Positions 3,368 to 27,230 of a DNA stretch of 35,428 nt are shown here, one piece after another. Each line of letters begins with the position of its first letter. The stretch's first letter is position 1. Both the position numbers and the translations under genes were made by a program. Source of the DNA: a virus (taxonomy: Duplodnaviria; Heunggongvirae; Uroviricota; Caudoviricetes); the IMG/VR virus record IMGVR_UViG_2923360383_000002; one strand, written 5' to 3'. Under the pieces are notes generated by a model. The model did no database searches. It was not told the DNA's origin and saw only the letters and a program-made list of their open reading frames with translations.

Positions 3368-6300
3368 TCAGCTAATCGTGATGCCTGCAGTGGCTTTCTT
3401 CATCACAACAACCAGCAAATCGCTGATACTTGCTGTGGGATACCAGCCATTTACCCACCATGCTGATACAGAAAACTCCAGCGTCATGTGGCCGCGACCA
3501 GCAGGCATATCAATAACACCACTGTAAACCAGCGTATTATCCATCGCGGTACGGTTATAAATTTCAGCACCGTTTTTCTTCACTATCAGGCGGCATGACG
3601 AATAAGTATCGCTGTTCTCCCGCTCATGTCTGGCACCGCTGAAAGCCACCGCCGGAATAACAATCTGCCGGTTAAACGGCTGATCGTCATAAACCCTGAC
3701 GGTAATGGTTCCTGATGGCCAACGCTCCGGTGCACGGGAGTCACGGGGGAAAGCCTTACCCACTGTTTTAACGAGATCGCCTTCAATCTGGTTTGCAGAC
3801 AGTTTCCCTCTGATGACACAGTTCTCGTTAATGGTGACATTATTGAGCGTGCCGGTATTCGCCGTGATGGCTCCACTGATATCCGCATTGCGGGCTGTCA
3901 GCCTGCCATCCGGCGTCAGGGAAAACGTCGGAGGATTGCCGGATGACGTGATGCTCACCGCAAACAGTCGCTTCAGGAACACGTCGTTCATGAACAGCTG
4001 ATTCCCCTGCGCCACAAACAGCGGCGTGGTGTTGCCGTTCTCCGGGGTAATCATCGCGATACGGTCCGCCTGCAGCAGAATACTGCTCAGGGTCTGACCA
4101 TCAACATCCTCAATCCCCGCGCCAATCCCGGCCACATAGGGAATACCGTTTTTTGTTTTCTGCACCTTCAGCATATACATGGCATTCAGCTCATTGCGCG
4201 TGTCTGACTGAACCCGCTGGATTTGCTGTATGGTCACGGCCTGGTCACCCAGCTTTTTATCCGTGGTCGAGGTAATTTCACTCCCTTTTTTATCCACGTA
4301 CTGGCGGACCTGTGCTATCTGTCGGGCGTTTTCTGACTGCCCCTGGCTGACAGTCTGTGAGATTTCACTGCTCACCCGGTCCACTTTCTGGCTCACCTGC
4401 GCGATGGCCAGTGTCTGGTCCTCATTCTTTTTCGCAACCAGCTGCGTGAGGCTGTTTTCCGCCTTCCCGATTTTCCGGGTCACTTCTGCGATATCCGTGT
4501 CCATCCGCTGACGGATGTCTTCTTCCAGTTGCGTGACCTCCGTACGCAGCGCTGAAGCATCAATGCGCTCTTTCAGTGCCTGGCCCAGAAGCGTCTCATC
4601 TATCAGCCCCCGGAAAATTTCCAGATACCCTTCACCATCATTGCTGGGCTGCCCGCTGGCTTCCACAAAAGCAGATTTTCCCACCAGGTTGACGCTTCGC
4701 ACGTAAAACCAGAAATCCGTCCCCGGCTTAATCCGGCTCCCCTGGACAGTCCACTGACTGCCGGTCCCCAGATAACGGGCAGATTTTTCCACCTGTGCCG
4801 TGTTCGTGATGCGTTTTTCTGAGAACCAGAATTCAAACTGTACCGTCGGGTCATACACCGCAAGACGCGGGACCGCCGTTATCTGAAAATACCCCGGCGT
4901 CAGCTCAATCCGAGACGGCGCTGCCGGTGCGGCAATCCGGAACGATACCGATGCCGGATCGCCCTGCTGCCCCCACGCATTTACTGCCCGGACTGTCAGC
5001 GTGTACCGCCCCAGCGCCAGTTGCGTGAAGCGGTATGTGGTTTCCGTCGTCCGGGCCGTGCTGACCAGCCGCTCACTGCCGTCATCCGCTGCCACGGTCA
5101 GGCGAAGCATAAAGCTCACGCCCTTCACCACCTTCGGCGTGTCCCAGCGCGCCAGCACCTGATATTCCCCGCTGTCTGCGGTAACTTCGGCGGTCAGGTG
5201 CTGCACCGCTGGCGGCGTGACACCATTCACCGTGCCGCTCTGGTCGCCGTCAAAGTGCGCCCCGTTATCCACGATGGCCTCTTTTGCCGGTACATGCTGT
5301 ACGGCGGTGATGGCATACGTACCGTCGTCATTCTCACGGATACTCACACAGCGGAACAGGCGCTGGCGCAGCGTCGGCAGCTTCAGCCCCCACACGCTGT
5401 ATCCGGCAACGCCGTCAGGAACACGGCTCACTTTCACCTTCACACCGTCGGTGACGGACTGGACCTCCACGCTCACCGGATTACCCTGCCCGTCAACCAG
5501 GCTTATCAGAGTGGTGCCGGAGGATGGCAGCGTGATTTCACGGTCGAGCGTCAGCGTCCGGGTCTGGCTGTTTACCGCCAGCACGCGCCCGCCGGTGCTG
5601 ATACCGGCATAGTCATCATCGCAGATTTCAATGACATCGCCCGGTACATGGCGAAGCCCTTCGGCACCCACGCTGAAGTCCACGGTCTGCGTTTCCAGCA
5701 GTTCCGTTTTAATCAGCCACAGCCCGGCGCGGTGCGCCTGCCCCCGGCTGGTACAGCCAAAGGCATCCATCTTCGTGACGTTACGACCGTAACGGGCAAT
5801 GGCCTGCGTATCTTCAACAAGCTCTGTCGCCGTCTCCCAGCCGTTATCCGGGTCAATCCAGTTCACCTCAACGGCATTATGGCGGTCCTTCAGGGCGCTG
5901 AAGCTGTAGCGGAACGGCGCGCCATCATCCGGCATCACCACATTACTGCGGTTATAGGTCCACACCTTATCCGACGGTCGGTCCTGCACGAACGTCAGCG
6001 TCTGCCCGTTCCATACCGGCATACAACGCATCGCCGAGCAGAAATCACTGAGAACATCCCACGCCTTACGCTGTGTGGTCAGCCAGGCATTACAGGTGAT
6101 GCGCGGCTCCGTGCCACCAAAGCCATCCGGCACCGACTGGTCGCAATACTGGCCGATGACATACAGCGCCCATTTATCCACATCCGCCGCACCAAGACGT
6201 TTCCCCATGCCGTAGCGCGGATGGGTCAGCATATCCCACAGACACCAGGCCATGTTGTTGCTGTATGCTGGCTTAAACGTTCCGTCCCAGATACCGCTGT

Positions 6301-7066
6301 ATTGCCGCGTCTGCGGGTTATAATTCGACGGCACCTGCAGAATACGCCCGCGAAGATGATAATTACGGCTCACCTGCTGGCTGCCGAACTGTTCCGAGTC
6401 CACCTGTACGCCGACCAGTGCCGTGTTCGGGTAGCACTGTTTCACATCGATGATTTCAGTGTATGACGACCAGAGCGTTTTGTTCTGCAGCTGGTCTGTG
6501 GTGCTGTCCGGCGTCATCCTGCGCATCCGGATGTTGAACGGGCGCGGCGGCAGGTTACCCACCACCACCGAGGCCAGATACTGCGAGGTGGTTTTGCCCT
6601 TAATGGTGATGTCTTTTTCCGTCACCCAGCCACCGTTACGCTGTATCTGAACCAGCAGGCGGACTTCCGACGGATTCCGGTCCCCCTTTGAGGTGGTTTC
6701 CACCAGTGCCTGCACACCGAAGGTAAAGCGCAGACGGTCAATGTTTGCCGACGTGATGGTCCGGGTGATCGGCGTGTCATATTTCACTTCCGTACCCAGC
6801 ACCGTCTCGGAGCCGGAGGATTCAAATCCCTCCGGCGGAGTCTGCTCCTGCTCACCTGCCCGGAACACCACCGTTACGCCGGAGATGTTGGTATTCCCCT
6901 CACTGTCCAGCACCGGTGTACTGTTCAGCAGCACGCTTTTTAAGCCATCCACCGGACCTTCAACCGGCCCTTCACTGATGGCATCGATCACACTCAGCAA
7001 CTGCGTGGACTTCAGATTGTCCTTCGCTTCGCGCGGGGTATGCCCCTTACTGCTGCCTTTACCCAT
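3368..7066 (-). CDS. J: Host specificity / tail tip protein J
   Basis: 1232-aa translation nearly colinear with lambda gpJ from [17 protein letters not shown] onward. Confidence 0.95.
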
Positions 7067-18905: not shown

Positions 18906-20663
18906 TCACAGAATTAACAGGTCCTCATCAGGATCAAGCGTGGACAGAAAGTCATTCACGCCCCCGCCATTTACCAGAAAGCGGCTCATGGCTGTAAAAA
19001 GCGCAACAGGGCCGTCGATTTTGGCTTCCGGCGTGGATTTATTCGGGAAGATGTTGTCGTTTTTGTCCGGTTTTACAGTAACGTTAGACATCATCCAGTT
19101 CATGACCGGATGATTGCTGTGATGGAAACGCCCGGCATAAACCAGTGATTCCGTTTCCTTCATGGCCTCTGACAGATTGCGGACCGTCTGCGGAACCTCC
19201 ACCAGCGGTATCCCTTCTTCAGCCAGTGCCAGACTGAACTGCATTGCGCTCCACGGGTCAAATCCCAGTTCCCTGAGGTTTTCACCGCCAATCCATTCCA
19301 GTAAGTCACTTTTTATCTGAGCATGATCGATAACATCACCATCCGTCAGGATGAGCTTATCCATCTCCGCCCACTTCCGGTAAAGTTCTGCCTGCTGCCG
19401 CGAGCATCGTTCCAGCCGTCCTTCCGGAAGCCAGAATTTAAAATCAGCATGAACATGTCCGTTATCGGTTCGCCAGAGTTTTGCCGCCGCACAGATATCA
19501 ATCTTATGAGCAAGGTCGACGCCGACCCACATGGGATATGTTTTCAGCTCATGTTGTGGAGCAATGTATTCGCACTTCTCCCACTTAATCATATCCATCC
19601 AGGCAGATTCGGCAGTGACCCACACATTCATGTGTTTGGTAAAAAAATTCACCCGCGCAGAGACCTGCTCCTTCGCTTTTTTCGCCAGACGACGCAGATC
19701 ATCCCAGCGTTTACAGATGCCCAGGCCAGGATTCGCTTTCTGCCAGACCGTTTCATCAAACGGATCATCTCCCTCATCAAGCGTGTAAATGATCGCAAAG
19801 TAAGAGTCGTCTTTTACAGCGCCCTCCACGTCGCTGTTATAGCCTCGCAATACCTTGATGGCGTAATCACGCTGCTCGTAACAAATCCCTTCCTTGTTAA
19901 AGCCAGCCGTGGTGATACCAAATAACAGGGACTGCAGACGGGCACCGGTTGCCGTTTCCAGAACGTCCCACACGTCGCGGGTTTTATGTGCATGCAGCTC
20001 ATCAATAATGGCGCAGTGGATGTTCAGACCGTCCAGGTTGTTTGCATCCGAGGAAAGCGGTTCAAATTTTGATGCGCTCTGCTCCTGGTAAATCGCCAGC
20101 TTGTTGAAATCAAACAACCGCCCGAGTGTCGACCGGGCTTTTCTGACCATATTTTTGGCGTCTTCAAACACGATTCTGGCCTGGTCACGCGTGGTTGCGG
20201 CTGAATACACCTCAGCTCCGCCTTCACTATCTGCCCCCGTCATATACAGGCCGATACCCGATGACAGGGTTGATTTTGCGTTTTTACGGGCGACTTCGTT
20301 GTACGCCGTCCGGAACCGGCGCACCATCACCGGACGTCCGCTGCCATCGCTGCGCATGACAACTTCCCCGGTTTCTTCATTGACCAGCGGAATGACAAAA
20401 CCAAAAATATTAATGAGGATAAATACATGCCAGTCCATCAACTCAATGGGCTGGCCTGCCAGTGCCCCTTTTACATGAGGCACAAATTTGTAGAAATTCA
20501 GGATGTGCTGCGCACGGGGTTCACTGAAATAAATCCCCCGCTTTTCGCCGTACTTCAGATCATCAAGAAAACGCTGGCAGGCCAGGCGGACAAATTCGCC
20601 AGCAACAATTTCTCCTGCAACAACACGTTCGGCGTAGCGGATCCCGTCAGCCACTTTTGCCAT
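18906..20663 (-). CDS. Terminase large subunit
   Basis: 585-aa protein following the small subunit; stop/start overlap with TerS at 20663. Confidence 0.9.
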   Translation of the reverse strand: MAKVADGIRYAERVVAGEIVAGEFVRLACQRFLDDLKYGEKRGIYFSEPRAQHILNFYKFVPHVKGALAGQPIELMDWHVFILINIFGFVIPLVNEETGEVVMRSDGSGRPVMVRRFRTAYNEVARKNAKSTLSSGIGLYMTGADSEGGAEVYSAATTRDQARIVFEDAKNMVRKARSTLGRLFDFNKLAIYQEQSASKFEPLSSDANNLDGLNIHCAIIDELHAHKTRDVWDVLETATGARLQSLLFGITTAGFNKEGICYEQRDYAIKVLRGYNSDVEGAVKDDSYFAIIYTLDEGDDPFDETVWQKANPGLGICKRWDDLRRLAKKAKEQVSARVNFFTKHMNVWVTAESAWMDMIKWEKCEYIAPQHELKTYPMWVGVDLAHKIDICAAAKLWRTDNGHVHADFKFWLPEGRLERCSRQQAELYRKWAEMDKLILTDGDVIDHAQIKSDLLEWIGGENLRELGFDPWSAMQFSLALAEEGIPLVEVPQTVRNLSEAMKETESLVYAGRFHHSNHPVMNWMMSNVTVKPDKNDNIFPNKSTPEAKIDGPVALFTAMSRFLVNGGGVNDFLSTLDPDEDLLIL

Positions 20664-21145
20664 CAGTCTCTCGCTTTTAAAAGCTCTGCCAGCGGATCAA
20701 CATTATCCGGTCCGGCGGTATTTACTTTTGCCCGGCTTGCCGGTGACATACCAAATTCTGCAAGCATCGCCCGGATCCGCTTCCAGGCATCCGCTTTCAT
20801 CGCAGCAGCCGGGTGTGCCTTAATCAGCACATCACCGTTCTGCGTTTTCGAGCGGTAGGTGTACCCCTCAACATCGAGTGTTTCGCAGTGATGCCGGTAT
20901 TCGGTATAGGCTTCCACCAGTAGCTCAAGCGCACGCGCATCAAGCTGAGAAATGATCCCTTCCGCATTCAGCTCTTCCGCCATTCGCCTGAACCAGTACT
21001 TCCCCTGCGCCCCTAAATGTTGCGGAATTTTAGGGAGACCTTTTTCATCCTTTTTAGCGGTTTTTTTGAGGTCTTTAACTGGCCGCTTTGAGGGGTTGCC
21101 TCGTATCAAATGCAGGCGTGGCGGGGTTTTCGGGGGTCCAGACAT
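20663..21145 (-). CDS. Terminase small subunit
   Basis: 160-aa basic protein immediately upstream of TerL and downstream of the HNH gene. Confidence 0.75.
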   Translation of the reverse strand: MSGPPKTPPRLHLIRGNPSKRPVKDLKKTAKKDEKGLPKIPQHLGAQGKYWFRRMAEELNAEGIISQLDARALELLVEAYTEYRHHCETLDVEGYTYRSKTQNGDVLIKAHPAAAMKADAWKRIRAMLAEFGMSPASRAKVNTAGPDNVDPLAELLKARD

Positions 21146-21292
21146 AATCGGTTTTACCTATCAATCATTTAATCACATTCCAAAAAAAAGTTTTCGAACC
21201 TGCGGCGATGCGAGGAAAGGTCAGGCGGCGGTACTGAACAGCCAGGGTTGCAGAGATTTGACCCGCCCCTCCCCTGCAGATGGGAGCTGTTA

Positions 21293-21643
21293 TCAATTGA
21301 TGCGTTCGCGCGCTGTTTTTGCTTTATGACAGGGCCAGCACAGACTCTGCAGGTTACTGTCTGCATCCGTGCCACCATGAGCTTTCGGAATGATGTGGTC
21401 CACAGTTCTGGCTTCAACGGCTCTCCCATTGCGCAGGCAGTTCTGACACAGATGATTATCACGCTTCAGTATGCGCGCACGTATGGCATCCCATTTCGAG
21501 CCATAGCCACGCTGGTGGCGGCTCAGTCCGCGTTGATGCTGTACCCATCCTTCGCCACGATGTTTATCGCAGTAACCAGAACTGTCTGTGGTTGTACCTG
21601 CACATCCACGCTTACGGCAGGCGCGTGGGATTAGTGCTGGCAT
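21293..21643 (-). CDS. HNH endonuclease (packaging-associated, HK97 gp74-like)
   Basis: Cys-rich zinc-finger-like N-terminus plus DHIIPKAHGGTDADSNLQSLCWPCH HNH motif. Confidence 0.85.
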   Translation of the reverse strand: MPALIPRACRKRGCAGTTTDSSGYCDKHRGEGWVQHQRGLSRHQRGYGSKWDAIRARILKRDNHLCQNCLRNGRAVEARTVDHIIPKAHGGTDADSNLQSLCWPCHKAKTARERIN

Positions 21644-21781
21644 GTTTCGCCCTTATATAAATCAAAGGTGACCTGCATTGAGTATCTCCATGGAATAGAT
21701 TTGCTGCTGATATGAGACAGATCAATAGACTTCATGAGCCAACGGGTGTAGATATTACTTTTTACTTCAGAGGGTTAACTC

Positions 21782-22321
21782 ATGGATATTAAAGATAAAA
21801 TCAATACCATTTTGTTATGTGACATTGCCATCCACCTAGGTATCGAAACTGATATTGATCCACAGCTTGTTAAATATGCTGTGTCATCTGGTAATGATTG
21901 GGTTATCAAGGCCGAATATTCACATTTGGATGTTGACGAACCAAGTAAAGAAGATCGTGATTTTGTTACTGCTGTCTTGAATATGTATCGCGGACTTTCC
22001 AATGCTTTCAGGAAACTTAGTGATGACGAGCAAAAAGAATTAGTCCGTGACCATCATCTAAAAATACATGATGGGGCAATTCAGCTCCCAGGTTTCGACG
22101 GTAATAATGAATGCGATTACTTCAGTATCATTGAGGCATATCAGAAAATTGATCGCTTCCCCGAACAGAAACAGCCCATTGCCAATACTCATTCACGTAC
22201 AGAACATCTCTATAACGCAATGCTTGATGAGTTTAAGAAAATTGACGCTGTAAATCGAAGCTGGGATTTATCGAAGGAAGAACTGGCATCCATTCTTTCC
22301 ACAGCTCCACGCAGTTTCTAA
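21782..22321 (+). CDS. Hypothetical protein, possibly YfbU-family-like; plus-strand cargo gene between lysis and packaging modules
   Basis: ATG with AGAGGG RBS; AT-rich; weak pattern resemblance to YfbU family (recollection only). Confidence 0.4.
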   Translation: MDIKDKINTILLCDIAIHLGIETDIDPQLVKYAVSSGNDWVIKAEYSHLDVDEPSKEDRDFVTAVLNMYRGLSNAFRKLSDDEQKELVRDHHLKIHDGAIQLPGFDGNNECDYFSIIEAYQKIDRFPEQKQPIANTHSRTEHLYNAMLDEFKKIDAVNRSWDLSKEELASILSTAPRSF

Positions 22322-22326
22322 GTGCT

Positions 22327-22593
22327 TTAGGCGGGTTTCCAACCCGCCTTATTATGCTCGTATATAGAGAAGGAAGCACCCAAATTAACCAGCGCGGATT
22401 TCTTTTCCTCAATACGGCTGTTAAGTTCAGCAACTGCATGCGGGCGTATGGCCTCAAGAAAAGCACTATATTGATAGGCAGACTGGATTGTCACACCAAG
22501 CCCTGCACCACTTTCCAGTATACCTTTCTGTCGCTGTAGCTCTTTCATCTCGTTATAGATGTAATGTGCGTTACTTAGGTTTTCTACGTTCAC
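22327..22593 (-). CDS. Hypothetical protein (88 aa) downstream of Rz
   Basis: ORF begins with GTG at 22593 (alternative ATG at 22548); convergent with the 21782-22321 gene. Confidence 0.35.
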   Translation of the reverse strand: MNVENLSNAHYIYNEMKELQRQKGILESGAGLGVTIQSAYQYSAFLEAIRPHAVAELNSRIEEKKSALVNLGASFSIYEHNKAGWKPA

Positions 22594-22748
22594 GCCCTAA
22601 GTTCTTCCTGCAGTTAGCCTGCACTGATTTGTTATGCGCCAATATGTCCCGCTTCGTCTGTTGCATTATCATAAGTAATAGCGTAGGTTGACACCTTGGC
22701 TCTCTTTCGCCACCGGCGAATCTTTAGCGGATTATCCTTGGCCGGTTT

Positions 22749-23231
22749 TTATCTGAGACATTGCTCACGAATGTATAGCTGTGCCCCTTCCAGTTGCTTC
22801 TGCATCGTCATCAACCGTTCTCTGAGGGTGAAATAATCCCGTTCAGCTGTGTCTGCCAGTCTGGGGCTGGTTGCATTATCCACGCTGGTGGGTCCGGTGG
22901 CTTCACGCACGGCTGCGGAGCAACTGGCATTGACCCGCAGGCGCTTACGACCAGCGGCAACATCAGCGCGCAGAGTTTCATTTTCAGCTTTCGCATTGGC
23001 TAATTCTCTCGAGTACTTTGCATCGAGCGCAGCAACATCACGCTGACGCTGCTGCATGTCAGCGATGGTGGCGGTCAGCTGCTTCAGCTCACTGACTTTT
23101 TTATCACGCTGTTCTTTGTAGGTGATGGCGTTATCACGGTAATGATTGACCGCCCACGACAGGCAGACGATGATGCAGATAACCAGAGCATAAATAATCG
23201 CGGCGACTCTGCTCACTGATCTATTCCCCAA
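22749..23231 (-). CDS. Rz: Spanin inner-membrane subunit Rz
   Basis: [30 protein letters not shown] and [16 protein letters not shown] match lambda Rz. Confidence 0.9.
22811..22996 (-). CDS. Rz1: Spanin outer-membrane lipoprotein Rz1 (embedded in Rz, +1 frame)
   Basis: Lipobox LVVSAC and proline-rich [30 protein letters not shown], as in lambda Rz1. Confidence 0.85.
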
Positions 23232-23746
23232 CAGGCTAATGCGCTTTCTTGGTCACGACGAATAACCTGTCCATAGCAGTTATTTGAACGTATGCGGCAA
23301 TCGCGCCCACCATCTTTTATCCACCAGCGAATCGCCTCGCATGCGCCCTTACGATCACCAGCATTCAGCCGCTTATAAAACGTCGATGGAAAACACTTAC
23401 CGGGGCCAATGTTATAGGGACAAAATGACGCGATACCCGCTTTTTGTGGTTCGGTCAGTGGTACTTTAATATTGCGCTCCACCCATGCCAGCGCCTTATC
23501 ACGCTCAATGGCGTTGACCTGGTCGCATTTTTCCTTCGACAGTTTCATACCGGGAAAAACGGGTTTTCCATCCACCATCGTGGCACCCCGACAGATGGTC
23601 CAGATGCCGGAACCATCGCGGTATGCCGTTGTGTGGTTACCTTCTTTTTCATCCAGAAACTGGTCGAGAATATCAGGCGCGGGCGCACCGACGGCAATCA
23701 GTGCCAGAACGGCAGCCGACAGGCCGTATCTGATTTTTGCGTTCAT
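23213..23746 (-). CDS. SAR endolysin (T4-lysozyme-type, phage 21 R-like)
   Basis: N-terminal signal-anchor-release helix ([14 protein letters not shown]) and catalytic E-x8-D-x5-T triad ([16 protein letters not shown]). Confidence 0.85.
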
Positions 23747-23809
23747 GGATATTTATCAGGATTTATCGGTTTCTGCCCACGGACAGGTTTATCTGTTCCG
23801 GTCAGTGAC

Positions 23810-24160
23810 TTAAGGTTGTGATTCCGGAGGAGTCTTCAGAGAACCAGTAATTCTTCCTGGTAGCTTTCCTTTGTAGGTTATCCACACATTCTGCGCCTCT
23901 AAAATTACGGGGCGCGTTTCTGGCAACAGCTCGTCCCCTTCACATAACCCGGCAGCAACATCCAGGAAGACCTGTCTGATGCTCCTTCTGGCTGCTGCCT
24001 CATAAAACTCCAGCGCGGCACCTTCAACACGGTCCAGCGAGATGTCCAGGTCAAAAATTTCACCGTCAAAGCGTTTTTTGTCCCGTAACGCTAAAGTTAC
24101 CGTAACTTTATTCTCAAAATTGCGGATCCCTTTCACAATCAGTTCATAGTTTTGAGTCAT
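23810..24160 (-). CDS. Hypothetical protein (116 aa) inserted between holin and endolysin
   Basis: Own GGGGAGAG RBS 4 nt after the holin stop; no recognisable family. Confidence 0.5.
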   Translation of the reverse strand: MTQNYELIVKGIRNFENKVTVTLALRDKKRFDGEIFDLDISLDRVEGAALEFYEAAARRSIRQVFLDVAAGLCEGDELLPETRPVILEAQNVWITYKGKLPGRITGSLKTPPESQP

Positions 24161-24164
24161 TGAA

Positions 24165-24380
24165 TTACTCTCCCCGTGCAGCCTTACGCTTGTCTTCTCT
24201 GATTTTGAAGTACAGATTTGTCAGATAAGTCAGGAAGCCCAGAACCAGACTCCCCAGTACACCAATCGCAGCCCACTGTGACGGACTGACCTGATCAAGC
24301 CACTGTAAAAACCAGTAGCCAGCACTGCCTGCGGAGGTGCCGTAGGCAATGCCCGTTGAAATTTTGTCCATGGATTTCAT
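24165..24380 (-). CDS. Pinholin, phage 21 S-type (class II holin with dual start)
   Basis: [63 protein letters not shown] is essentially the S21 sequence; GGAGGTG RBS. Confidence 0.9.
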
Positions 24381-24671: not shown

Positions 24672-24746
<75 letters not shown>

Positions 24747-24749
24747 ATA

Positions 24750-24825
<76 letters not shown>

Positions 24826-24827
24826 AC

Positions 24828-24904
24828 TGGACCGCCACCGGGGACTCGAACCTCGCACACTCAACTTAAAGGGTTGACGCTCTTTCCTGATGAGCTAGTG
24901 GCGG
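24828..24904 (-). tRNA. tRNA-like gene; anticodon UUU (Lys) by position, with atypical C33 and mismatches - possibly divergent or a pseudo-tRNA
   Basis: 7-bp acceptor stem (CCGCCAC/GTGGCGG), TTCGAGT T-loop, CCA end; anticodon loop CCTTTAA; T-stem has one mismatch. Confidence 0.45.
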
Positions 24905-24905
24905 T

Positions 24906-24981
24906 TGGTGGCCCTTGCTGGATTTGAACCAGCGACCTGGCGATTATGAGTCGCTCGCTCTCACCACTGAGCTAAAGGGCC
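24906..24981 (-). tRNA. tRNA with CAU anticodon, ileX-like (Ile2 if lysidine-modified, otherwise Met)
   Basis: GGCCCTTTAGCTCAGTGGTGAGAGCGAGCGACTCATAATCGCCAGGTCGCTGGTTCAAATCCAGCAAGGGCCACCA; resembles E. coli ileX more than elongator Met. Confidence 0.8.
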
Positions 24982-25277: not shown

Positions 25278-26159
25278 ATGGAGAAGTCAACTTCCTTTAA
25301 GGTGTTTTATGACGCCAATGATAAAGAATTGTCAAAGCATGCTATTGACGCTGAAACACTTGGTAAATCAATACTTTCCATGACAACTCTTATTAATAAA
25401 GCTGATAGCTTGTTAAATGAGGGCAACAAATCTGTAAAAATTTTAGTCACTGCCCCCATCCAGAAAGGATCTGTGGGTATTGCATATACTGTAGTGCAAC
25501 TCCTACCGCATGCAATTGACGTTCTGCAAACTATCGGGATTGTTGGAACTGTGGGCGCAACAGCTCATGCCACCGCTTTATCGTTAATAAGACAATTAGG
25601 CTCAAAAAAAGTTGTTTCGATTACCAAAAAAGCAGGAACAGATAAGGCTGTTCTTGAATTTGAAGATGGTGAGATTGAATGCTCATCAGCAGTTGCAACC
25701 TTGGTAACTGAGCCAACAATTCGGGATGCGTTGATTTCTGTTGTTCAGGCTCCTTTAGATGGTAAAGACTCTCCCATTTTTAAAATTGTAGATGAGAATG
25801 ATAAAGTTTTGCTCAAGCTTGAAGGAGAGCAAACTGAAGAGATTAAACCCCTTCCCAGAGGGACGCTTTTGACCAAAACAGTTGAAGAAAAAGAGGTTAA
25901 TGTAAAATTTACCCAAGTTAACTTTCATAGTGAGAAGGGGTGGAGGATGGACTACAACCAAGATGAGCACTCCGTACTACTTACAGACTATGAGTTTTTA
26001 GCTAAAGTAAGGCAAGCAGAGGGAACGATCACTAGTGAAGATATGTTTTCTGTGCTTCTAGAAACAACACGTACAACTTCCGCACGAGGACAAACAGAAA
26101 AGTATGTTATCAAGAAAGTACTTCGTCATCGCGTGATTCAAGGGAAAAAATTGATCTAG
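25278..26159 (+). CDS. Hypothetical soluble protein (293 aa), first gene of the plus-strand cargo operon
   Basis: ATG with AAGGA RBS; AT-rich codon usage unlike flanking phage genes; no Walker or other motif recognised. Confidence 0.6.
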   Translation: MEKSTSFKVFYDANDKELSKHAIDAETLGKSILSMTTLINKADSLLNEGNKSVKILVTAPIQKGSVGIAYTVVQLLPHAIDVLQTIGIVGTVGATAHATALSLIRQLGSKKVVSITKKAGTDKAVLEFEDGEIECSSAVATLVTEPTIRDALISVVQAPLDGKDSPIFKIVDENDKVLLKLEGEQTEEIKPLPRGTLLTKTVEEKEVNVKFTQVNFHSEKGWRMDYNQDEHSVLLTDYEFLAKVRQAEGTITSEDMFSVLLETTRTTSARGQTEKYVIKKVLRHRVIQGKKLI

Positions 26160-26861: not shown

Positions 26862-27230
26862 TCACAATTCCATCTCGAGACGAACATCAAGCATTGAGAG
26901 ACAGCCATCGATAAAGCCCTCTGCCATCTGGATCTCTATCCGTATCAATTTCTCATCTTTTTTACGTGCCTTTGCAATCTTCCGTTTCGAGATGCCGTAT
27001 AGGTAATGAGCCACAATCAGAGAATGTTCGTACGGTTTTTTCTTTTTTAGTAAAGCAAGGCAGCTCTCAATGATAAGAGCGTCATCGTCTGTACAAGAAA
27101 TTCGTGTTTTACTTATCTGCGGCATAAGCCCCTTAAAACCAGCTGCTATAGGTGAATAGTCTACCCCAGAGCTATCACTCGCAGCCCATGCCCCCCACCG
27201 CTCAAGAACCATCTGAATATCACGCACCAT
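26862..27230 (-). CDS. Late-gene antiterminator Q (DLP12 QuuD-like family)
   Basis: MVRDIQMVLERWGAWAA...IAAGFKGL...AEGFIDGCLSMLDVRLEMEL resembles the QuuD-type Q protein as I recall it. Confidence 0.8.
   Translation of the reverse strand: MVRDIQMVLERWGAWAASDSSGVDYSPIAAGFKGLMPQISKTRISCTDDDALIIESCLALLKKKKPYEHSLIVAHYLYGISKRKIAKARKKDEKLIRIEIQMAEGFIDGCLSMLDVRLEMEL

Follow-up and report, generated by a model that had tools for sequence, protein, structure and literature searches.

An exchangeable slot in a lambdoid prophage holds a Kamadhenu-like protein of the YfbU family, and this moron slot is both real and well delimited. It lies between the spanin and HNH endonuclease genes of the window, by which we mean the whole 35,428-nt stretch of tailed-phage DNA analysed here (IMG/VR record IMGVR_UViG_2923360383_000002), and contains two convergent ORFs, of 179 and 88 codons. 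For the larger, YfbU-like gene, an antiphage role exercised in the lysogen is, by analogy, the most likely function, and we would put its probability at about 0.5. The smaller gene belongs to a widespread family of phage proteins, and from their distribution across lineages the two genes appear to be neighbours by history, not partners.

A delimited exchange unit between Rz and the HNH gene

The late genes of the phage run on the minus strand (Table 1), and the YfbU-like gene is the sole plus-strand gene in the stretch from holin to terminase, diverging from the HNH gene and converging on the 88-aa ORF. A sequence-only reading of this DNA had described the arrangement as a convergent cargo pair separated by 5 nt, with the larger gene AT-rich and equipped with its own ribosome-binding site (RBS), and these particulars hold up. 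The gap between the two 3' ends occupies 22322-22326, a GAGGG Shine-Dalgarno motif (21770-21774) stands 7 nt 5' of the ATG, and the GC content of the 179-aa gene is 37-40% versus about 52% in the flanks. The contrast in composition with the neighbours applies to the YfbU-like gene; p76, the conserved core of the small gene, has a GC content of 0.46.

Table 1. Features of the cargo block and its surroundings. Positions are those of the window, except in the last row, which uses the coordinates of its own locus.
Feature	Position	Strand	Remarks
Late genes, large terminase to holin	18906-24380	minus	
Large terminase	18906-20663	minus
P27-type small terminase	20663-21145	minus
HNH endonuclease	21293-21643	minus	PF01844, E 1.9e-16; left anchor of the slot
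Complete inserted cargo block	21644-22748		HNH start codon to Rz stop codon
Region upstream of the YfbU-like gene	21644-21781	plus	divergent from HNH; also holds the minus-strand RBS of HNH
Weak candidate promoter	-35 TTCATG 21731-21736; -10 TATTAC 21753-21758	plus	position-weight scan
YfbU-family gene (179 aa, ATG)	21782-22321	plus	candidate Kamadhenu-like antiphage gene
88-aa ORF (GTG start)	22327-22593	minus
Read-through of 12 codons plus stop codon	22327-22365	minus	lineage-specific
Hairpin, 9-bp GC-rich stem	22329-22349	plus	U-rich tail on plus strand only
Conserved 76-codon core of the small gene (p76, GTG start)	22366-22593	minus
Remnant of o-spanin gene 3' end, non-coding	22594-22662	minus	would encode ..KQTKRDILAHNKSVQANC
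Spacer of 86 nt adjoining the Rz stop codon	22663-22748		common to GNAT-cargo relatives
Rz i-spanin	22749-23231	minus	PF03245, E 1.6e-49; right anchor of the slot
Rz1	22811-22996		embedded within Rz; from ORF list
Lysozyme	23213-23746	minus
DUF1327/YdfR protein	23810-24160	minus
Class II holin	24165-24380	minus
Vibrio cassette (locus L343)	repeats 5331-5398 and 6559-6680; genes 5475-6561

Taking the HNH protein as an anchor, we collected 80 IMG/VR relatives (HNH 88-100% identical) and located the nearest upstream lysis marker, which was found in 50 of them; slot states were counted in these 50 loci. Half (25/50) have an empty slot, in which the stop codon of Rz and the start codon of HNH are separated by just 46 nt. 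The block seen in the window is present in 15, one of which has an IS5 inside the YfbU-like gene, and another seven carry an alternative cargo, either a GNAT acetyltransferase with a 66-aa ORF (orf66; five loci) or orf66 alone (two loci). The three that remain hold other inserts. The sequence-only reading had called this interval a cargo site and had proposed a comparison across related prophages as a check; the occupied, empty and alternative states confirm the idea, and the interval it had marked out coincides with the exchange unit.

The junctions are sharp. On the left, every pairwise alignment loses homology precisely at the start codon of HNH (21643/21644), so that each version of the cargo supplies the RBS of the HNH gene itself. 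On the right, the junction is at the 3' end of Rz, with homology to empty-site and alternative-cargo relatives back at 22750-22779. Relatives that differ in slot content are 97-98% identical in the flanks. The interval is one indel block, a real unit of exchange at a swap-prone spot in the prophage, and the locus is a clean example of a prophage swap site documented in empty, occupied and alternative states. The IS5-type element mentioned above belongs to a single IMG/VR prophage (L264, reverse complement 5749-6944); it is 1196 bp long, is flanked by a 4-bp target duplication, and sits at the equivalent of 22040-22043 in the window.

Among complete E. coli genomes the interval is present in 306 of 5426, with at least 80% coverage in 223, always on the chromosome and with the two genes labelled 'YfbU family protein' and 'hypothetical protein' in RefSeq. 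Two deposited E. coli phages also carry it. As 1012 of the 5426 genomes have the HNH module, at 1120 places in all, roughly a fifth of the prophages with this module hold the block.

The position had been likened to that of lambda bor, and the comparison is apt in both position and orientation: each is a lone opposite-strand gene directly after the spanins and before the packaging genes (the Rz-cos junction in lambda), unlike its neighbours in base composition and present in some relatives while absent from others. The YfbU-like gene has two of the features by which a moron is recognised, presence or absence between near-identical phages and deviant base composition. The likeness ends there, however. 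The 179-aa protein has no relation to Bor in sequence or fold (a Pfam scan for similarity to the Bor lipoprotein returned YfbU and a sub-threshold restriction-enzyme match only), its promoter is not evident, and the block in the window includes, in addition, a late-strand gene and a spanin-gene scar. An Rfam search of 21200-23300, the 86-nt spacer included, gave no match.

Elsewhere in the window, a second lone plus-strand ORF (25278-26159; 293 aa, GC 0.34-0.39, no Pfam match) sits between the gene for antiterminator Q (26862-27230) and a tRNA array, the slot in which Shiga-toxin phages carry stx. The array itself comprises four minus-strand tRNA genes (Gly-tcc, Thr-tgt, Lys-ttt, Met-cat; 24672-24981) just 5' of the holin gene.

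Both ORFs are genes, and the larger encodes a YfbU-family protein

Compared with their counterparts in Klebsiella and other homologues, the two ORFs show dN/dS ratios of 0.05-0.12 (179-aa gene) and 0.12-0.27 (small gene). Given these low ratios, the numerous homologues, and RefSeq annotation of both in 223 genomes, the two are genuine genes under purifying selection rather than chance ORFs.

That the larger protein might belong to the YfbU family had been a guess, with a Pfam search named as the way to settle it. PF03887 (UPF0304) matches residues 46-172 with 46.3 bits against a cut-off of 25 (E 6.5e-12). A profile built from the subfamily matches the YfbU structures 1wpb and 4lr3 in the PDB (E 2.7e-9), and the protein has the two-domain all-helical YfbU fold over its full length. 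A PDB search with the single sequence gave no match; YfbU was reached by the subfamily profile only. The gene is not the orthologue of chromosomal yfbU, as the score against the corresponding equivalog model (NCBIfam NF003936) is 34.8 bits where the cut-off is 90. The prophage gene is AT-rich and variably present, its product is 16% identical to E. coli chromosomal YfbU, and where the latter reads GFDAATE the prophage protein reads GFDGNNE.

This GFDGNNE motif is invariant, together with H137 and Y144, in a clade of at least 1811 clusters at 90% identity. No PADLOC v2 model matches the 179-aa protein, and a search of the literature on enterobacterial prophage genes by RefSeq protein accessions and PHROG identifiers found no paper. 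Across 77 IMG/VR loci with YfbU-like proteins 28-100% identical to that of the window, the larger genes to either side are for the most part encoded on the other strand (upstream in 68 loci, downstream in 62). In the loci matched by the E. coli-phage query proteins the gene lies between lysis and HNH/terminase genes, a placement seen in several unrelated head and terminase backgrounds. A copy of 32% identity in the P2-like Yersinia phage vB_YenM_324 (L259 3956-4534) lies among hypothetical genes, 3' of the tail-fibre and tail-fibre-assembly genes.

Expression signals of the YfbU-like gene

A consensus promoter scan detected no plus-strand promoter upstream of the YfbU-like gene. The weak candidate from the position-weight scan has a 16-nt spacer and ends 23 nt 5' of the ATG; at the aligned position, two relatives (L130 and L135) have a better version (TTAACA/G, 16-nt spacer, TATTAA/T). 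The scans thus yield no clear sigma-70 promoter, and it is from the orientation of the gene that we infer independent transcription in the lysogen.

A hairpin that begins 8 nt 3' of the YfbU-like stop codon, and thus falls inside the last codons of the 88-aa ORF, has a predicted free energy of -16.2 kcal/mol (z-score -3.2) and is kept in the Klebsiella and APEC copies. It was not called by a consensus terminator scan. Since its U-rich tail is present on the plus strand only, it is likely to be the terminator of the YfbU-like transcript.

The small gene ends lysis modules in other temperate phages

The 88-aa ORF matches the entire profile of phrog_5415, a family of uncharacterised small phage proteins (positions 1-76 of 76, E 2e-38), and differs from it in having a 12-residue read-through tail and in standing apart from the spanin gene that usually precedes it. 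Its 276 close homologues, from Citrobacter, Salmonella, Klebsiella and E. coli, are nearly all 76 aa long. Where Klebsiella has TCT TAA at the end of the gene, the aligned DNA of the window has TCT ATA TAC, which shows that the 88-aa ORF is the 76-aa protein after loss of its stop codon, now reading 12 more codons through the hairpin. This loss and read-through account for the gap of 5 nt between the convergent genes here as opposed to 41 nt in Klebsiella.

In a set of 1.8 billion representative proteins the p76 family forms 99 clusters at 50% identity. An AlphaFold (AF2) model predicts a helical hairpin (H3-28 and H39-70, pLDDT 77), the two helices being joined by an invariant loop, GLGVTIQS.YQ, and a disordered tail at residues 78-88 of the 88-aa ORF (pLDDT below 50). 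All 70 diverse relatives that we examined match phrog_5415, and a Pfam search with them returned no family. PDB searches by single sequence and by profile gave no match, PADLOC v2 has no match for the protein, and Foldseek produced nothing significant (best E 0.76 in the PDB and 0.034 in BFVD).

Of the 64 callable IMG/VR loci with p76, 55 have a spanin-type ORF as its immediate upstream neighbour; eight have the antisense shadow of such an ORF there, and one has something else. The first gene downstream, on the other hand, falls into 24 different clusters and is on the opposite strand in 44 of the 64. With such uniform neighbours upstream and such diverse ones downstream, p76 marks the point at which, in temperate phages, the lysis module stops on its 3' side and a hypervariable slot begins. 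The genes in that slot are mostly antisense orphans without a Pfam or PADLOC match (examples are L183 5277-5750, L240 5323-5703, L252 5264-5944, L223 8253-8867, L247 5287-5682 and L002 3359-3922). Ten other cargo genes of the slot received no Pfam or PADLOC assignment, except for one marginal HEPN-type match (E 0.004) in a 204-aa protein, which has an R-x4-H motif.

The family extends beyond lysis modules, as copies in virulent phages attest: p76 is found in EP_H11 (111 kb), PCSE1 (70 kb) and the Ackermannviridae phage Bue1, where it is one of a series of small early-type genes in the vicinity of primase or helicase genes (L255 3004-3249, L256 3001-3234, L257 3001-3240). Two classifications of p76 were tried and rejected. 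It is not a spanin, having neither an N-terminal transmembrane helix nor a lipobox and being modelled as a soluble helical hairpin; nor is it a moron in its own right, for it shares the strand of the late operon and usually closes other lysis cassettes.

A spanin scar records the mosaic origin of the block

How the small gene came to stand after a lambda-type Rz can be read from the DNA around it. Homology with other-cassette prophages spans the small gene plus about 70 nt 5' of its GTG and stops, for the E. coli C3, D53-1, APEC 102026, Klebsiella and Enterobacter loci, at 22660-22662. In those loci the stretch is the end of a lipoprotein o-spanin ORF (..KQTKRDILAHNKSVQ.NC), and the prophages that share it together with p76 have GH19 or GH108 endolysin cassettes. 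In the window the same stretch is non-coding, lies downstream of the lambda-type Rz and carries the RBS of p76; it is a recombination scar from a different type of lysis cassette. The scar predates exchange of the inner cargo, because 22609-22748 is common to the window and GNAT-cargo relatives (in one of these, L004, homology extends over 22609-23300 at 96.8% identity). The whole is thus a mosaic cargo block that entered the junction between Rz and HNH by recombination, in a lambdoid prophage whose head and terminase are of the HK97 type; p76 came in together with the spanin-gene fragment, and it would be read from the late transcript.

Distant relatives occur in two-gene cassettes and near defence genes

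Among about 72 species-level loci in genomes, 29 have a gene for a transmembrane protein on the same strand, 1-25 nt 5' of the YfbU-like gene. The partner, about 167-171 aa long, has a single transmembrane helix at its N terminus and is matched by neither Pfam nor PADLOC; it typically lies at about 5465-5990 with the YfbU-like gene starting at 6001 (L025, L028-L030, L032, L036-L038, L041-L043, L045-L047 and others; L341-L345). The two genes make a candidate two-gene mobile module that is not in PADLOC v2. In Vibrio the pair forms a single cassette between two attC/VCR-type repeats, within an array of 17 attC-type repeats in 12.5 kb, and the same cassette occurs in four different neighbourhoods. 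Phage loci, by comparison, have no conserved partner gene, and the window has no homologue of the transmembrane partner or of the FRG protein described below. As a partner gene goes with most of the bacterial relatives but with none of the phage copies, the lone phage protein may work differently.

In four or five loci (L035 6545-7228; L074 5008-5832; L083, L088, L092) the YfbU-like gene is directly adjacent to a gene for an FRG-domain protein (PF08867), which matches the PADLOC candidate PDC-S15 (E 6e-82). More broadly, of 141 neighbours up to three genes away, at least 11 are matched by PADLOC models (TIR, type I restriction-modification, and several PDC and HEC candidates), a raw tally from which the background rate of such neighbours is not subtracted. 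Two Saccharibacteria relatives (L053 1642-2361; L085 3999-4703) have an N-terminal extension of 50-60 residues which, judged by eye, looks like a ribbon-helix-helix and thus a putative DNA-binding domain. At another locus (L016 4998-5516 and 5523-6035), a 172-aa YfbU-family gene is followed after 6 nt by a 170-aa ORF, an arrangement found on at least 146 Enterococcus faecium plasmids.

What the YfbU-like gene might do

The sequence-only reading had left both genes without a function. For p76 this stands, Pfam, PDB and fold searches having yielded none; for the YfbU side it no longer holds in full, as antiphage activity has been published for Kamadhenu. This protein of 180 aa, a YfbU-domain system of one gene encoded on the Lactococcus plasmid pUCCL624_130, causes abortive infection (Grafakou et al., NAR 2024; PMC11381338), and all of the phage mutants that escape it alter G22 of a Sak-like (single-strand annealing) phage protein (PNAS 2025; PMC12184496). 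Like Kamadhenu, the prophage protein is the product of a single gene of about 180 aa, has PF03887 as its only domain and the full YfbU fold, and is carried by a mobile element. The two differ in host phylum and in type of element (Lactococcus plasmid versus E. coli prophage slot), and they are likened here by length, domain, fold and gene number. No Lactococcus protein is among the best 120 of the 1811 matches of the clade profile search, and none is among the matches listed when PLSDB was searched by tblastn with Enterococcus and Bacillota YfbU proteins.

The antiphage reading combines the Kamadhenu precedent with the moron-type placement of the gene and the mobile, defence-adjacent contexts of its relatives. 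Imagine a lysogen in which transcription of the YfbU-like gene runs counter to the late operon, starting in the region upstream of the gene and stopping at the hairpin. The protein would then be made in the lysogen and could provide single-gene abortive infection or defence against superinfection in the manner of Kamadhenu. Upon induction of the prophage, late transcription, antiterminated by Q, would cross the hairpin and silence the gene from the antisense strand. p76 would take no part in this; independent of the YfbU-like gene, it would be what it is in other phages, the last gene after the spanins.

A moron-like position fits any conversion function equally well, as lambda bor illustrates, and one might suppose that the YfbU-like gene serves lysogenic conversion, its target being host physiology (the response to DNA damage, cell death or ribosome-associated stress) and not incoming phages. 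E. coli yfbU has been reported as required for death after DNA damage, on the basis of one deletion phenotype (PMC2646832), and YfbU has been found in high-order assemblies with reported ribosome contacts (PMC3210124). Yet the protein is remote from chromosomal YfbU by both identity and equivalog score (16%; 34.8 bits versus 90), antiphage activity is the only phenotype tested for a YfbU protein from a mobile element, and its relatives sit in integron cassettes and beside defence genes, so that we consider a role in host physiology unlikely. We find it less probable still that the protein serves the lytic cycle of the phage itself or counter-defence, for example by poisoning host YfbU oligomers to block a death pathway. 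Phage-encoded paralogues of host proteins are often inhibitors, and the fold is the same as that of host YfbU, which was crystallised with 16 chains per entry. But in almost every phage locus the gene faces the late operon in antisense, so that late transcription should work against it; half of the close relatives do without any cargo in the slot, and one copy has been disrupted by IS5 in a region that is otherwise intact.

A different set of alternatives concerns p76. The sequence-only reading had presented the convergent genes as a pair, and they might form a functional module in which the overlapping 3' ends tie a toxin or defence protein to a regulator or antidote: they are adjacent in the 223 E. 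coli genomes and in Klebsiella prophages, are gained or lost jointly relative to empty-site relatives, and the hairpin is situated within the small ORF. The pair does not survive comparison across lineages, however, where each gene is common without the other. Of the 64 called IMG/VR p76 loci, 60 have no YfbU-like neighbour, nor do the p76 loci of E. coli C3 and D53-1, quite apart from the copies of p76 among the early-type genes of virulent phages. Conversely, the YfbU-like gene occurs without p76 in Enterobacter prophages (with lambda-type terminases), in most phage loci below 89% identity and in every one at or below 82%. In E. coli APEC 102026 (L005 4709-4948) p76 is a pseudogene with an internal stop and the adjacent YfbU-like gene is intact, and the overlap at the 3' ends stems from a lineage-specific loss of a stop codon. 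A toxin-antitoxin-like or defence pair was rejected since the genes occur separately, and a coupled module of any kind strikes us as very improbable. Could p76 instead be an accessory component or regulator of the lysis cassette, with the YfbU-like gene as unrelated cargo? In temperate phages it comes directly 3' of the spanins, often overlapping the o-spanin stop codon, and this order holds across GH19, GH108 and lambda-type cassettes. On the other side, a transmembrane segment and a lipobox are both missing from the protein, whose predicted form is a soluble helical hairpin; in virulent phages its gene lies near primase or helicase genes and away from lysis genes, and the copy in the window has been cut off from its native cassette. 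A role in lysis is thus doubtful, and of these explanations the antiphage reading of the YfbU-like gene remains the one that we prefer.

Implications

To our knowledge, YfbU has been without a biochemical function ever since its structure was solved in 2004. For mobile YfbU-domain proteins, one abortive-infection gene from Lactococcus is the only lead to a function, and a lone YfbU-like gene is present in about 4% of complete E. coli genomes. The locus is of moderate interest, chiefly as a way into the question of what YfbU does, and the YfbU-like gene is a testable and unsurprising defence candidate, a candidate and not a discovery. Natural isogenic relatives with an empty site would allow tests of function in the best genetic system available. 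Rather tentatively, we suggest that the GFDGNNE clade as a whole could be a widespread, uncatalogued antiphage family (at least 1811 clusters) with two modes of organisation. In bacterial genomes and Vibrio integrons it would be paired, in a cassette of two genes, with a small partner anchored in the membrane; in temperate phages it would stand alone and antisense in the lysis-terminase junction, where the late transcription of the prophage itself would give self-immunity. If this is true, the E. coli prophage copy would be a tractable system in which to learn what the YfbU fold senses, perhaps phage annealing proteins.
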